Source of the DNA: a bacterium
GTDB taxonomy: Bacteria > Patescibacteriota > Minisyncoccia > Phycocordibacterales > Phycocordibacteraceae
DNA: 55,949 bases
Assembly: GCA_023264495.1 (NCBI GenBank)
Contig: JAHFMM010000001.1
Span: 1 to 55,949 of the forward strand
Direction: 5' to 3'
Shown here: positions 4,056 through 43,463 of the stretch, piece after piece
How the letters are laid out: each line of letters opens with the position of its first letter
Numbering within the stretch: position 1 is the stretch's first letter
Notes under the pieces: model-generated
Told to the model about the DNA's origin: nothing
The model's database searches: none
What the model saw: the letters and a program-made list of their open reading frames with translations, nothing else
Translations under genes and position numbers: made by a program

Positions 4056-5255
4056 ATGGCAGAATTTGATCGCAGCAAGCCACACATGAACGTCGGGACC
4101 ATCGGTCACGTTGACCACGGCAAGACGACGCTCACGGCAGGTATCCTCAATGTTCTCTCGATGCTTACTGGCGAGGGCTACTCGGCTCGCGTTGAAGGCG
4201 TCGACAATATCGACAGCGCTCCTGAAGAGAAGGCGCGCGGTATCACTATCGCGCTCCACCACTCGGAGTATGAGTCACCGAATCGTCACTACGCGCACAT
4301 CGATGCGCCAGGACACGCTGACTATATTAAGAACATGATCACCGGTGCGGCGCAGATGGACGGCGCCGTCCTCGTGGTCGCAGCGACTGACGGCGTGATG
4401 CCGCAGACGCGCGAGCACATCCTTCTCGCGAAGCAGGTCGGCCTTAAGAAGCTCATCGTCTTCCTCAACAAGGTAGACATGGTTTCCGAGGCAGACCTCA
4501 TCGATCTCGTCGAAGAAGAGATCCGCGAGCTCCTTACCAAGCAGGGCTACGATGGTGTCAACACGCCAATTGTCCGCGGCTCGGGCTTGAAGGCGCTTGA
4601 AGCCAAGGACGCTTCTGACGAGTGGGCGCAGAAGGTGAAGATCCTTGTCGACACTATGGACACTTACTTCGACCTCCCAGAGCGCGAAGTGAATAAACCG
4701 TTCCTCATGCCGATCGAGGACATCTTCTCGATTGAAGGCCGTGGCACCGTCGTGACCGGCCGCATCGAGCGTGGTACCGTCAAGGTTGGCGAGGAAGTCG
4801 AGATCGTCGGTATAAAACCGACGGCCAAGACGACCGTTACCGGCATCGAGATGTTCAATAAGCAGCTCTCTGAAGGGCAGGCAGGCGATAATGCCGGCAT
4901 TCTCCTCCGCGGCACGAAGAAGGAAGATGTGCATCGCGGCCAGGTCCTCTCGAAGACGGGCGCGGTCACGCCGCACACCGACTTCGATGCAGAGGTCTAC
5001 ATCCTCGGTAAGGATGAGGGTGGCCGTCATACGCCATTCTTCTCTGGCTACAAGCCGCAGTTCTACATCCGCACAACAGACGTGACGGGTGAAGTTACTC
5101 TCCCTGATGGTAAGGAGATGGTCATGCCTGGCGATACTGTTACCTTCAAGGTGAAGCTTACCGCACCGGTTGCGCTCGAGGAGCAGCAGCGCTTCGCTAT
5201 TCGCGAAGGCGGCAAGACGGTCGGTGCCGGTGTGGTCACCAAGATCACTGCCTAA
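4056..5255 (+). CDS. tuf: elongation factor Tu
   Basis: 399 aa with the [14 protein letters not shown] and NKVD motifs. Confidence 0.97.
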
Positions 5256-5275
5256 GCGCCTGATTGAAGACTCAT

Positions 5276-5650
5276 ATGGAACCAACAACGGAAGAGAAAC
5301 CGAAAACGAAGCGTGTCTCGAAGAAGGCAGTTGCTCCCATAGCGGAGCACAAGCTCCGGATCCGTGTTCGCGCCTATGAGCACAAGATTCTCGATGTCTC
5401 AGTGAAGCAGATTATGGACACCGCCGCTCGCTTTGATGCGGTCGTGGTCGGCCCCGTGCCGCTCCCGACTGAGATCAAGCGCTGGACCGTGAATCGTTCG
5501 ACCTTCGTCCACAAGGACGCGCGCGAACAGTTCGAGATGCGCATCCATAAACGCCTTATCGACATTCAAAACCCGTCGCAGAAGGTGGTCGAGGCCCTCA
5601 CGAACCTCAATCTCCCCTCCGGCGTTACGATCGACGTCAAGATGGTCTAA
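5276..5650 (+). CDS. rpsJ: 30S ribosomal protein S10 with a basic N-terminal extension
   Basis: S10 core (LRIRVRAYEHKILD...MRIHKRLIDI). The ATG at 5276 was chosen; the ORF track start at 5264 is TTG. Confidence 0.93.
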   Translation: MEPTTEEKPKTKRVSKKAVAPIAEHKLRIRVRAYEHKILDVSVKQIMDTAARFDAVVVGPVPLPTEIKRWTVNRSTFVHKDAREQFEMRIHKRLIDIQNPSQKVVEALTNLNLPSGVTIDVKMV

Positions 5651-5654
5651 AGAA

Positions 5655-5694
5655 ACAAAACAACCGCCGCCCTTCGGGCGGCGGTTGTTTTGTG
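5655..5694 (+). terminator. strong hairpin after rpsJ
   Basis: 18-bp stem ACAAAACAACCGCCGCCC-TTCG-GGGCGGCGGTTGTTTTGT. Confidence 0.6.
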
Positions 5695-5701
5695 CTATAA
5701 T
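5693..5701 (+). promoter_or_regulatory. extended -10 promoter of the TA pair (leaderless)
   Basis: TGCTATAAT lies 6 nt upstream of ATG 5708. Confidence 0.45.
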
Positions 5702-5707
5702 CTGCAT

Positions 5708-5896
5708 ATGACCACGACGCAGATGAAGAGAATTGAAAAACTTGCAGAAGCAAGCAGACGATACGCTAAAAAGTCGCTCGAAAAGAGCCGCGAGCTCGAA
5801 ATATATCTCAGCATCCTCGACTACAAAGCCGGTCGAGTGAAGGAATATTCGTCTGTGGACGCGATGTTTCGCGCCGCAAAACGCCTCCACATGTAG
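5708..5896 (+). CDS. putative antitoxin (62 aa) of the adjacent RelE-family toxin
   Basis: Small ORF whose stop overlaps the toxin start (TAGTG). Family not recognised; the call rests on position. Confidence 0.5.
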   Translation: MTTTQMKRIEKLAEASRRYAKKSLEKSRELEIYLSILDYKAGRVKEYSSVDAMFRAAKRLHM

Positions 5897-6159
5897 TGAT
5901 GAAACGGAACGTCCCGACTCAAAGTTTTCTCAGAAGTCTCGCGCTCTTTTTGCATCGTCACCCTGATCTTGAGGAAAAAACACACGTACTGATAGAGCGT
6001 CTCGTCACTGGCAGTTCAGAAGTGCGAATACATCCGCTTCACGGTCCGCTTAAAGGATTTTATTCGGCGCGCATCTCGCAATCTTATCGTCTCGTCTTCG
6101 CGCTCGAGCCGGACGCCGTCATCTTCATCGACATCGGCTCCCACGATGAGGTGTACTAA
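5896..6159 (+). CDS. RelE/ParE-superfamily (YafQ/RelE-like) mRNA interferase toxin
   Basis: HPLHGPLKGFYSARISQSYRLVFALEPDAVIFIDIGSHDEVY is a typical C-terminal signature of this family. Confidence 0.8.
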   Translation: MMKRNVPTQSFLRSLALFLHRHPDLEEKTHVLIERLVTGSSEVRIHPLHGPLKGFYSARISQSYRLVFALEPDAVIFIDIGSHDEVY

Positions 6160-6186
6160 AAACTAGGACATCGGATGTCCTAGTTT
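6160..6186 (+). terminator. hairpin after the toxin gene
   Basis: AAACTAGGACATC/GATGTCCTAGTTT inverted repeat. Confidence 0.5.
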
Positions 6187-6195
6187 GCATCATTT

Positions 6196-6226
6196 TGGCC
6201 AAAGCCTGGCATTGGCCATTGGCCAC
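6196..6226. repeat. TGGCCA-rich palindromic repeat, copy 1
   Basis: TGGCCAAAGCCTGGCATTGGCCATTGGCCAC. Near-identical copies lie at 39679-39712 and 33122-33144. Confidence 0.7.
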
Positions 6227-6436
6227 AACCGCCCTGGCGGGCGGTTGTGTGGTTCTTGTTTCGCATGTTAGTATGAAGGTATCCTTCTGGGTCGGACGTG
6301 TGGTTCAGGCGCCCCTTGGTCAAAAGCCAGTCGACAGGTCTAGACCAAGTTAGAACCATATTTTCGGCCCCGAGGGACTTCGGCCATAATGGTCAAGCCC
6401 TTTCGCAATCTCGCTTCGGCGGGATTTCCTATTTTC

Positions 6437-6465
6437 TTGCATATTTCCGCATGCTCGTGTAGAGT
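6437..6465 (+). promoter_or_regulatory. putative promoter of rplC and the downstream S10 operon
   Basis: TTGCAT (6437-6442), 17-nt spacer, TAGAGT (6460-6465). Confidence 0.45.
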
Positions 6466-6507
6466 ACTGGAATCGCTATGTCCCGAGTGTAATCACGAGG
6501 GACCTCC

Positions 6508-6546
6508 AGCAAATCGCGCCACGCGATTGCTGTGGCGCGATTTGCT
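6508..6546 (+). promoter_or_regulatory. 15-bp perfect leader hairpin ending 4 nt before the rplC ATG
   Basis: AGCAAATCGCGCCAC-GCGATTGCT-GTGGCGCGATTTGCT. The loop can pair alternatively with the 5' arm. Confidence 0.4.
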
Positions 6547-6550
6547 TTAC

Positions 6551-7165
6551 ATGAAATTCATTCTCGCGAAGAAAGAAGGCATGACCCGCTTGTTCGGGGA
6601 GGATGGTCGCGCCCGCGCAGGGACTATCCTCGTTGCCGGCCCGATGACCGTTACGCAAGTCAAGACCACTGAAACGAAAAGCGGCTACAATGCGGTGCAG
6701 GTCGGTATGGGTACGCGCAAGACGAAGAACATCAGTAAGGCCGTCCTTGGACACACGGGAGGCAAAGCCTATGAAGCAATTCGCGAGTTCCGAGACGCGA
6801 CCGGTGCCGAGGTCGGCGGGACGATTGATCTCTCGACATTTGCGGTTGGCGACACCGTGCAGGTCTCGGGCCTCTCAAAGGGTAAAGGCTTCTCGGGTGT
6901 GGTGAAGCGTCACGGCTTCCACGGCGGCCCGCGCTCGCACGGTCAGAAGCACACTGAACGCTCGCCGGGATCGATCGGCGGTTCTGGTGGCCGCGCCGGC
7001 GGGCGCGTGGTGAAGGGCAAGAAGATGGCAGGCCGCATGGGTACTGATCGCATCACCGTCACCAATCTCAAAGTCCTCGCGGTCGATGCGAAGGAAGGGA
7101 AGATCATCATCTCAGGTGCTGTTCCGGGCCGCCGAGGCACGCTCCTTGAGGTCATCGCAAAGTAA
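6551..7165 (+). CDS. rplC: 50S ribosomal protein L3
   Basis: MKFILAKKEGMTRLF...FKGHGFHGG-type L3 sequence. The ATG at 6551 was chosen inside the 6389..7165 ORF. Confidence 0.93.
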   Translation: MKFILAKKEGMTRLFGEDGRARAGTILVAGPMTVTQVKTTETKSGYNAVQVGMGTRKTKNISKAVLGHTGGKAYEAIREFRDATGAEVGGTIDLSTFAVGDTVQVSGLSKGKGFSGVVKRHGFHGGPRSHGQKHTERSPGSIGGSGGRAGGRVVKGKKMAGRMGTDRITVTNLKVLAVDAKEGKIIISGAVPGRRGTLLEVIAK

Positions 7166-27582: not shown

Positions 27583-27777
27583 ATGACCACCGCCCAGCTC
27601 AACAAGCAGATAGGGAGTATCGTCGAGCAGAAACTCCTCGAGTTTTTGGGCGACCCTGATGAAGGGCTTGAACTCAAGAAATCATTTATCACTGAGCTCA
27701 AGAAGAGCATAAAGACGAAAGGGAAGACCGTACCGCTCTCGATAGTAATGAAGAAGTATGGCATCCGTCGAGTTTAG
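27583..27777 (+). CDS. putative antitoxin (64 aa)
   Basis: Overlaps the downstream RelE/ParE toxin by 20 nt. The ATG at 27583 was chosen inside the 27403..27777 ORF. Confidence 0.5.
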   Translation: MTTAQLNKQIGSIVEQKLLEFLGDPDEGLELKKSFITELKKSIKTKGKTVPLSIVMKKYGIRRV

Positions 27778-28009
27778 GGCGCATGCATTGAAGGAACTCG
27801 AAGAACTCGACCCCGTCATCGGAGAACGCATTGTCGAGAAGATATTTTGGCTTGAGAAGAATTTTGTTCTCGTCACGCCCGAGAGATTGCACTACAACTT
27901 TCGAGAACTGTATAAACTCCGCGTTGGTGATTATCGAGCGGTGTATTCCCTCAAGGGAGAGGTCATCACGATTGAAAAGGTGCGGCATCGACGAGAGGTC
28001 TACAAATAA
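27758..28009 (+). CDS. RelE/ParE-family toxin
   Basis: LYKLRVGDYRAVYSLKGEVITIEKVRHRREVY signature. Confidence 0.8.
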   Translation: MASVEFRAHALKELEELDPVIGERIVEKIFWLEKNFVLVTPERLHYNFRELYKLRVGDYRAVYSLKGEVITIEKVRHRREVYK

Positions 28010-32669: not shown

Positions 32670-33512
32670 ATGGACACGAACGCTTTTCGGAGACAGGTCT
32701 GGAGATTCTATAAGATGCACGGACGGCATGATCTGCCGTGGCGGAAGACGCATGATCTCTATAGGATTTTGGTATCAGAAGTGATGCTACAGCAAACACA
32801 AGTAGATCGGGTTATTCCATTCTATAAGAGTTTCATCAAGCAATTCCCAACGGCGCGGCGGCTTGCCACCGCGCCGCTTCGCGAGGTGCTTACCTCCTGG
32901 CAAGGACTCGGCTATAACCGCCGTGCAAAGATGCTGCACGAAGCGGCAAAGATAATCGTCAAGGTAGGTGTACCGAAAGATGTCGAAGCGCTTGAACAAT
33001 TGCCGGGTGTCGGCCCATATACGGCTCGTGCGGTTGCTGTGTTTGCGTACAATCAGGACGCTGTTGTTATCGAGACAAATATACGCACGGCTATCATTCA
33101 CCACTTTTCCGCCAATAAATCTGGCCAAAGCCTGGCTTTGGCCAAGGTAAGTGATGAGGATATTGAGAAAGTCCTTTTGCGGGTATTGCCGAAAGGCCTG
33201 CCCGCCAGCAGGCAGGGAAGGTCGAGAGAATGGTATAGCGCGCTCATGGACTATGGCGCACATTTGAAGCAGCAAGGCATCTCGCATAACGCGCGCACAA
33301 AGGCATATGCCAAGCAATCAAGATTCGCGGGCTCGCTGCGCGAAGCCCGCGGAGCGATTCTTCGTGCGCTCGCGCGTGGCCCGCGCAAGCGTGCAACGCT
33401 CGAAAATCTCCTCGGCGTGCCACGCCGATTTCAGGTACAAAAAGCGCTTACCGCGCTCCTTGCTGAAGGTCTCATCTGCTCGTACCGCGGTACATTCACA
33501 CTCGGGGCATAA
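32670..33512 (+). CDS. MutY/EndoIII-like HhH-GPD glycosylase with a C-terminal wHTH-like tail
   Basis: LPWRKTHDLYRILVSEVMLQQTQV and LPGVGPYTARAV motifs. The ATG at 32670 was chosen. Confidence 0.75.
   Translation: MDTNAFRRQVWRFYKMHGRHDLPWRKTHDLYRILVSEVMLQQTQVDRVIPFYKSFIKQFPTARRLATAPLREVLTSWQGLGYNRRAKMLHEAAKIIVKVGVPKDVEALEQLPGVGPYTARAVAVFAYNQDAVVIETNIRTAIIHHFSANKSGQSLALAKVSDEDIEKVLLRVLPKGLPASRQGRSREWYSALMDYGAHLKQQGISHNARTKAYAKQSRFAGSLREARGAILRALARGPRKRATLENLLGVPRRFQVQKALTALLAEGLICSYRGTFTLGA
33122..33144. repeat. TGGCCA-rich palindromic repeat, copy 3 (inside a CDS)
   Basis: TGGCCAAAG-CCTGG-CTTTGGCCA, a perfect 9-bp-stem palindrome translated as SGQSLALAK. Confidence 0.7.
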
Positions 33513-39678: not shown

Positions 39679-39712
39679 TTGGCCAAAGCCTGGCATTGGC
39701 CACATTGGCCAT
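39679..39712. repeat. TGGCCA-rich palindromic repeat, copy 2
   Basis: TTGGCCAAAGCCTGGCATTGGCCACATTGGCCAT, in the divergent secG/HD intergenic region. Confidence 0.7.
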
Positions 39713-43205: not shown

Positions 43206-43463
43206 ATGCAGATACTGTACTCCGCGCGATTTGTGAGGCGCTACAAGAAGCTCACTGCATCAGTGAAGTCTTCTGCCGAACATCGCGAAAAGCTTTTCCG
43301 CAAAGATCGCAACAATCCGCTTCTCGGAACGCATAAGCTGAAAGGGAAGATGGCGGGACTCTGGGCATTCTCAATCAGCGATCGATTCAGAATTATATTC
43401 GAACAAGTAGATGAAGAGACGACTATCTTCCATACTGTCGGAGATCATAACGTGTACGAATAA
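43206..43463 (+). CDS. RelE/StbE (YafQ-like) mRNA interferase toxin
   Basis: LLGTHKLKGKMAGLWAFSISDRFRIIFEQVDEETTIFHTVGDHNVY. Confidence 0.8.
   Translation: MQILYSARFVRRYKKLTASVKSSAEHREKLFRKDRNNPLLGTHKLKGKMAGLWAFSISDRFRIIFEQVDEETTIFHTVGDHNVYE

Follow-up and report, generated by a model that had tools for sequence, protein, structure and literature searches.

Why should a toxin–antitoxin pair lie between rpsJ and rplC, inside the ribosomal protein cluster of a bacterium? We investigated this question in the window, i.e., the whole 55,949-nt stretch of DNA analyzed, which is contig C11 of genome G000 (0.56 Mb in 31 contigs, 91.5% complete) from the Candidate Phyla Radiation (CPR). The initial annotation, made from the sequence alone, had described a self-contained pair with a RelE-type toxin at this junction; the features it listed were all found where it had placed them, apart from a detail of the toxin start. 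In our judgment, it is quite probable that the pair is a functional type II toxin–antitoxin cassette that is mobile and occupies a permissive gap between a terminator and a promoter. Close homologs of the window's proteins were metagenomic in origin, and the annotation of one close toxin relative gives a Minisyncoccota bacterium as its source, which places the organism in the CPR/Patescibacteria. The congeners compared here were species representatives and metagenomic contigs, and the counts given below describe samples, not absences.

The downstream gene of the pair encodes a YafQ/YoeB-like member of the RelE superfamily. The initial annotation had staked its RelE/YafQ-like assignment on a match to RelE/ParE models, and the product scored 34.6 bits against NCBIfam RelE_StbE (TIGR02385; curated cut-off, 27.9 bits), or 33.6 bits in another search. 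Scores against three Pfam models fell just below their cut-offs, namely YafQ_toxin (28.2 bits; cut-off, 30), ParE_toxin (22.6 bits; cut-off, 23), and YoeB (gathering cut-off), and PF15738 was assigned to the toxin in the precomputed Pfam annotation of a protein collection. Phmmer matched YoeB and YafQ among PDB sequences, and a profile of 36 toxin homologs matched the YafQ-like HP0892/HP0894 of Helicobacter pylori (5e-6). The AlphaFold2 (AF2) model built from the homolog alignment (predicted local distance difference test, pLDDT, 93.5) showed the order E-H-H-E-E-E-E-H, with the two N-terminal helices on an antiparallel β-sheet of the RelE fold. In Foldseek, the model matched Escherichia coli YafQ best (template modeling (TM) score, 0.86–0.89; root-mean-square deviation, 1.8–2.3 Å), followed by YoeB, RelK, and RelE. 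Nine positions were invariant over the 36 homologs (H21, P22, H45, L47, G49, R64, G80, H82, and Y86), of which H45, R64, H82, and Y86 may have catalytic roles.

The toxin closely resembles known systems in fold, although not in every residue. As in DinJ–YafQ of E. coli and HP0892/HP0894 of H. pylori, a toxin of approximately 90 aa with HPLxG and G(S/T)H motifs is encoded directly 3' of a small antitoxin gene; in the phmmer alignment, the toxin motifs HPLHG and GSHD, and with them H45 and H82, align with HPLQG and GTHA of YafQ. In contrast, identity was just 20–24%, and two YafQ residues, which we take to be numbered His63 and Asp67, were not kept, with Arg at the first of these positions. Unlike DinJ or RelB, moreover, the antitoxin is a 62-aa helical protein without a ribbon-helix-helix, and the mRNA is apparently leaderless. 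Among single PDB sequences, YoeB matched best, over the strand core (GFYSARISQSYRLVFA vs. GFWSRRITEEHRLVYA), and it shares the C-terminal His and Tyr, but the pair has no Phd/YefM antitoxin, and the Glu of the YoeB PEPLK motif, presumably Glu46, is His in our toxin.

The upstream gene appears to encode the cognate antitoxin. The antitoxin gene lay directly 5' of the toxin gene at every locus whose DNA was read, and gene coordinates imply a 4-nt overlap between the two in most homologs. In the window, the initial annotation had the 62-aa antitoxin overlapping an 87-aa toxin. Both open reading frames (ORFs) stand, whereas the overlap probably does not: a GTG start would overlap the antitoxin ORF by 1 nt and an ATG start would leave a 2-nt gap, and the ATG, giving 86 aa, is more likely because toxin homologs begin with MRRK/MKRR. 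The antitoxin had no match in Pfam, NCBIfam, or the PDB by sequence or profile, and its relatives numbered just 19 among 5.8 billion clusters (66–82% identity). Its AF2 model (pLDDT, 84.5) consists of a long helix (residues 3–40) and a short helix (residues 50–59) and gave no Foldseek fold match. No DNA-binding domain (ribbon-helix-helix, helix-turn-helix, AbrB, or Phd) was detected by Pfam, NCBIfam, PDB, or fold searches. Such a domain is usual in type II antitoxins but not universal, and PaaA2 is a precedent without one. We infer that the 62-aa protein would neutralize the toxin.

PaaA2–ParE2 (paaR2-paaA2-parE2 of E. coli O157:H7) combines an all-helical antitoxin of approximately 63 aa, which lacks a DNA-binding domain, with a toxin of the RelE/ParE fold, and it raises the possibility that the toxin in the window is a ParE-type gyrase poison and not an RNase. 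PaaA2–ParE2 (PDB 5cw7) was among the weaker fold matches, the ParE_toxin score narrowly missed its cut-off, and a very small helical antitoxin beside a RelE/ParE-fold toxin may recall PaaA2. However, the two antitoxins matched neither in sequence nor in fold, the window has no third regulator gene, and the toxin looks like an RNase: by sequence and by fold, it matched RNases best throughout (YafQ, HP0892/HP0894, YoeB, and RelK), and its HPLHG motif and C-terminal GSHDEVY motif align with catalytic-region motifs of YafQ and YoeB. We find a gyrase poison scarcely credible.

Both genes are under purifying selection. The pair L098 versus L106, the only one not saturated at synonymous sites and hence the only one to give a usable ratio, yielded dN/dS (omega) values of 0.18 (antitoxin) and 0.22 (toxin); in the remaining, saturated pairs, dN was far below dS. 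These values bear on whether the pair could be a decaying remnant, that is, an inactive toxin with an orphan small ORF in a junk-filled spacer. Decay does occur in the family, as an in-frame internal deletion at locus L099 has removed the toxin core, leaving 41 aa beside an intact antitoxin; in addition, the Pfam scores for YafQ, ParE, and YoeB lie just under the gathering cut-offs, and the spacer of the window also holds repeats and an unexplained 170-nt segment. Against this, both ORFs in the window are intact, the nine invariant toxin positions include the four putative catalytic residues, the structure model is confident, omega is approximately 0.2, and the NCBIfam score exceeds its cut-off. 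A remnant is accordingly very improbable.

We then asked whether the cassette is an addition to this junction. The initial annotation had proposed comparing the junction in relatives, and we mapped both flanking genes in 48 congeneric species, with gap lengths set by tblastn ends (error up to tens of nucleotides). In 13 of the 48, the junction was empty, spanning 144–243 nt without an ORF and made up of the terminator hairpin of rpsJ, the promoter TTGCAT-N17-TGTAGAGT, and a leader of approximately 85–100 nt that is conserved. The last 130 nt of the gap in the window (approximately 6419–6550) are homologous to this promoter and leader. At the other end, rpsJ terminates as initially described in a hairpin with an 18-bp stem, the core of which was 93% identical over 30 nt to the native rpsJ terminator of the close relative L024 and is probably its ortholog; in most congeners tabulated, the gap has a terminator hairpin on its 5' side. 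Because the first hairpin matches the L024 terminator and the last 130 nt match the ancestral promoter and leader, the extra DNA in the window would amount to approximately 725 nt (5694 to approximately 6418). In a census of 222 species representatives of the genus, the cassette family occurred in six, and among these only the window genome has it between rpsJ and rplC. Judged against the empty sites, the cassette is an insertion, as had been claimed.

The insertion site itself is highly variable. Across the 48 congeners, the gap ranged from 144 to 4570 nt (median, 726 nt) and exceeded 250 nt in 35, with 14 gaps of 251–1000 nt and 21 of more than 1 kb; the two largest were 3856 and 4570 nt. 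In four further congeners, the contig ended right after rpsJ. Most of the ORFs in these gaps were singletons (76 of 90), and many belonged to no family; the named cargo included an IS1595 transposase, Fic/DOC (SoFic), NYN, P63C, PaaX, DUF2339, and peptidoglycan-binding domains (examples in L051, L054, L056, and L053/L077). As a control, the neighboring rplC–rplD gap did not exceed approximately 100 nt in 47 of these genomes. Variable cargo beside a stable neighboring interval is the pattern of an integration hotspot. PADLOC matched few of 87 cargo ORFs (SoFic, PDC-S04, PDC-S24, and NYN), and we rejected the idea that the junction is a defense island.

This variability extends beyond the genus. 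Among 29 junctions from other families of the order, 18 measured 37–197 nt, four measured 468–1307 nt, and seven had no rplC within 1.5 kb, so that the tendency to expansion is order-wide, although strongest in this genus. On the other side, the tuf transcription unit probably ends with rpsJ, which follows tuf by only 8–21 nt in the window. The tuf–rpsJ interval was short in 35 of 37 congeners; in the other two, it measured 596 and 1334 nt, so that occasional interruption occurs there too. Within the genus, rpsJ|rplC separates two operons and recurs as a variable site. The placement, which the initial annotation called unusual, is indeed unusual among bacteria as a whole; in this lineage it is not, as the boundary repeatedly holds varied cargo, and the same cassette family occupies it in at least four further lineages.

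Integration hotspots between core genes have reportedly been described elsewhere. The junction resembles them as an interval flanked by core genes with different accessory genes in each genome, but differs in lying inside the normally invariant str-S10 cluster and in having no integrase or tRNA at the site. A literature search found no paper on this site. A survey in which translation genes were over-represented in predicted genomic islands of Patescibacteria (PMC12455944) fits a variable junction between such genes.

The cassette also appears to carry its own expression signals. The predicted extended −10 promoter reported initially is present 6 nt 5' of the antitoxin ATG, and a simple sigma-70 scan found no two-hexamer promoter, consistent with extended −10 promoters that lack a −35 element. 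Of eight distinct homologous loci, six have a TGnTAnnnT box whose end lies 6–7 nt before the antitoxin ATG; because most homologous cassettes retain this spacing across different loci, the description of a self-contained unit holds. No Shine–Dalgarno sequence is present. Genome-wide in G000, TANNNT hexamers peaked 6–9 nt 5' of first ATGs, with counts of 77, 38, 49, and 50 (background, approximately 12), whereas Shine–Dalgarno-like motifs showed almost no peak. This contrast suggests that leaderless mRNAs are a normal expression mode for a large share of G000 genes, and the promoter spacing points to a leaderless cassette mRNA. In Mycobacterium tuberculosis, a member of a different phylum, toxin–antitoxin transcripts are reportedly leaderless for the most part (PMC8485053); in the window, the leaderless start is predicted from promoter spacing.

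We further examined the cassette family at other loci. At rpsJ|rplC, it occurred in at least four further metagenomic lineages (L088, i.e., GCA_054641655.1; L089/L090/L095; L093/L094; and L096), always as the last element before rplC and, in two of them, behind other cargo. It also lay between rpmE (L31) and prfA-rpsB-tsf (G054 at locus L137, G153 at locus L139, L098–L102, and L106, with L091 by identical sequence), after rplJ-rplL-x-mscS (G009, L085/L092, and L103–105), next to an IS110 transposase near typA (G015), and in an unrelated context (G066). At the rpmE|prfA loci, the toxin stop is 2–20 nt from the prfA start with no terminator, and prfA is probably co-transcribed with the pair for this reason; the toxin gene of L093 ends right against the rplC promoter. 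When antitoxin and toxin were combined in one tree, junction cassettes fell in three places: L088 grouped with an rplL-mscS cassette (100/100 support), and L089 and L096 grouped with rplL-mscS and rpmE-prfA cassettes (97/92). A single clade was rejected for the junction cassettes (approximately unbiased (AU) test, p = 2e-7) and likewise for the rplL-mscS cassettes (p = 4e-10), with locus groups set by context and the test applied once the tree was known. Two histories would fit, namely repeated colonization of the same small set of sites or a swap of alleles between resident cassettes. Inspection by eye across cassettes for target-site duplications or shared ends revealed nothing in common beyond the promoter motif TTTGTGCTATA(A/C)T and terminator hairpins of a generic kind, and blastn of the insert against a plasmid collection gave no match.

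Because the gap repeatedly receives foreign DNA in this genus, the best-supported reading of the placement is a permissive, recurrent insertion site and not a functional tie to ribosomal protein synthesis. Several points weigh against this picture of a mobile, functional cassette in a permissive gap. The cargo may be less diverse than it looks, since many of the ORFs in the gaps of relatives could be spurious; the cassette promoter, leaderless start, and terminators are predictions; an antitoxin with no recognizable DNA-binding fold leaves the autoregulation typical of type II systems unsupported; and the mode of movement is not marked by any recombinase, target-site duplication, or inverted ends. 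Finally, the family adjoins translation genes at several loci (rpsJ|rplC, rpmE|prfA, near rplL, and near typA), which a neutral gap model does not predict.

The last point raises an alternative in which the cassette has a functional coupling to the translation apparatus, being selected at or targeted to the boundaries of translation operons; its promoter and ribosome-dependent toxin would then tie the output of the genes for ribosomal proteins and release factor to stress or phage attack. The family's presence at rpsJ|rplC in five lineages including the window, its recurrence at rpmE|prfA-rpsB-tsf, after rplJ-rplL-x-mscS, and near typA, the likely read-through into essential translation genes at rpmE|prfA and in L093, and the non-monophyly of both junction and rplL-mscS cassettes are all in line with such coupling. 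However, hairpins insulate the window cassette on both sides, and many unrelated cargoes share the junction, so that the site and not the cargo looks special. Only five or six distinct site types are involved, and a rough estimate for chance adjacency in a genome of approximately 700 genes gives p ~0.05. In addition, the non-monophyly could stem from allele exchange via conserved cassette ends, and the AU test was post hoc. We hold coupling to be unlikely. Equally doubtful is its more specific form, in which the cassette is drawn to or kept at terminator/promoter boundaries of CPR translation operons (rpsJ|rplC, rpmE|prfA, and 3' of rplL), with its promoter co-opted at some loci and its movement directed by hairpins in an unrecognized manner. 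That the family lies at several translation-gene boundaries is suggestive, yet few independent sites are involved, and we consider a functional or targeting link unlikely.

The features of the locus are collected in Table 1, together with four further RelE/ParE-superfamily toxin genes of G000, two of which lie inside the same 56-kb window.

Table 1. Features of the rpsJ–rplC locus and further toxin genes of genome G000 (window coordinates unless a contig is given)
Feature	Position	Strand	Basis and remarks
tuf (EF-Tu)	4056..5255	+	ORF list; tblastn identity 85–95% to congeners
rpsJ (ribosomal protein S10)	5264/5277..5650	+	Pfam Ribosomal_S10, 1.1e-33
rpsJ intrinsic terminator	5655..5693	+	perfect 18-bp stem, −34.5 kcal/mol, z −7.9; terminator scan
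Extended −10 element TGCTATAAT (predicted)	5693..5701	+	6 nt upstream of antitoxin ATG 5708; sequence
Antitoxin gene, 62 aa, unclassified family	5708..5896	+	ATG 5708
Toxin gene, YafQ/RelE-superfamily mRNA interferase (predicted)	5899..6159	+	86 aa from ATG 5899; 87 aa if GTG 5896
REP-type palindrome, 12-bp hairpin, z −5.9	6160..6186	.	directly after toxin stop; genome repeat copies
TGGCCA-rich palindrome, second repeat family	6195..6218	.	six genome copies
Terminator-like hairpin, 11 bp + T-rich tail	6224..6249	+	terminator scan
Orphan structured unit	6266..6434	+	TGTTAGTAT box, ~150 nt folded RNA (z −3.7), terminator hairpin 6407–6426 + T-run
rplC promoter + structured leader	6437..6550	+	conserved in 45 congeners
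rplC (ribosomal protein L3)	6551..7165	+	Pfam Ribosomal_L3; translation; rplD 2 nt downstream
Further RelE/ParE toxin gene	G000:C2:2148-2381	-	
Further RelE/ParE toxin gene	G000:C4:10248-10475	+	
Further RelE/ParE toxin gene	27767-28003	+	
Further RelE/ParE toxin gene	43209-43448	+	

Downstream of the toxin, the picture differs from that drawn initially. The hairpin at 6160–6186, described as the cassette's own, is a copy of a repetitive extragenic palindromic (REP) element and not the cassette terminator: over 27–28 nt, it matched at 100%, on opposite strands, two inverted copies flanking a Y1-transposase gene on contig C5. This gene (G000:C5:510-1185), which resembles REP-associated tyrosine transposases (RAYT), scored 29.2 bits against Pfam Y1_Tnp (cut-off, 23) and lies between inverted copies of the 28-nt palindrome AAAACTAGGACATCGGATGTCCTAGTTTT at C5 482–509 and 1186–1213 (together locus L003, G000:C5:482-1213). 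A Y1 gene between inverted palindromes with further intergenic copies is the arrangement of REP/RAYT systems, and the copy at the cassette edge is identical to those flanking the gene; unlike in typical REP families, however, the copy number is low, with only four in the genome, the fourth of which is degenerate (G000:C16:9617-9637). The second repeat, TGGCCAAAGCCTGGC(A/T)TTGGCCA, has six copies that are all apparently intergenic, three in the window (6195–6218, 33121–33144, and 39679–39702) and three elsewhere in G000 (C12:25049, C13:12720, and C24:8965). The next hairpin, 6224–6249, matched congener terminators at approximately 90%, and similar hairpins sit directly after the toxin stop in L088, L089, and L097. 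It is probably the original terminator of the cassette, displaced from the toxin stop by the two palindromes.

The following structured segment (6266–6434) is a candidate small RNA or a remnant of an older insertion. The spacer at 6250–6436 had no match in 221 congeners, and an Rfam scan of 5200–6700 (E ≤ 1) returned only chance-level matches on hairpins (psRNA14, MIR1508, istR, and RNAI), the one for this segment being istR (E = 0.1).

The initial annotation had rplC re-promoted approximately 390 nt downstream. The distance is correct (391 nt from the toxin stop to the rplC ATG), but the promoter and leader are ancestral and older than the insertion because they are common to all congeners examined. 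The promoter, TTGCAT-N17-TGTAGAGT, occupies 6437–6465 in the window, and congeners carry TGTAGAGT or TGTATAGT. In the 45 congeners, the leader follows the order GCTA(C/T)GT(A/C)C, a variable hairpin, GGACC(T/A)ATGGC, and a GC-rich hairpin with a T-run, which stops 4–10 nt before the ATG; in the window, the terminal hairpin (6508–6546; −31 kcal/mol, z −6.4) ends 4 nt 5' of it. The first leader stem shows compensatory changes, from U-A to A-U in nine sequences and from C-G to G-C in 18. There was no match to an Rfam family, and the leader looks like a ribosomal protein autoregulatory attenuator placed before rplC instead of rpsJ.

Putting these results together, we propose that the extended −10 promoter would drive a leaderless bicistronic mRNA, of which the first product would be the 62-aa helical antitoxin and the second, translationally coupled, the 86-aa YafQ/RelE-type toxin. 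Freed from the antitoxin, the toxin would cut mRNA on the ribosome, as expected from its family. The cassette probably landed as a small mobile unit between two transcription units, one ending in tuf-rpsJ and the other beginning with rplC-rplD and preceded by the ancestral promoter and leader, in a gap that tolerates and repeatedly receives foreign DNA in this CPR genus and, at a lower frequency, elsewhere in the order. The very conserved flanking genes could serve as recombination arms. Later, two palindromic repeats, one of them a REP linked to the RAYT-like transposase, would have been inserted after the toxin stop, and a separate structured non-coding unit lies between the cassette and the rplC promoter.

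The cassette itself is one more RelE-superfamily toxin–antitoxin pair, although its antitoxin looks new, being a short helical protein with no relatives detected outside approximately 20 metagenomic sequences. The site is also of note: the textbook-invariant adjacency of rpsJ and rplC is an operon boundary here, empty in approximately a quarter of the species sampled and otherwise filled with up to 4.5 kb of mostly unique genes. This junction shows that streamlined, tiny genomes still acquire accessory DNA, and it may explain why island predictors flag ribosomal genes in Patescibacteria. The recurrence of the family beside translation genes poses a testable question on targeting or selection; if such a link were true, the cassette would be a translation-linked addiction or regulatory element and not a random passenger.

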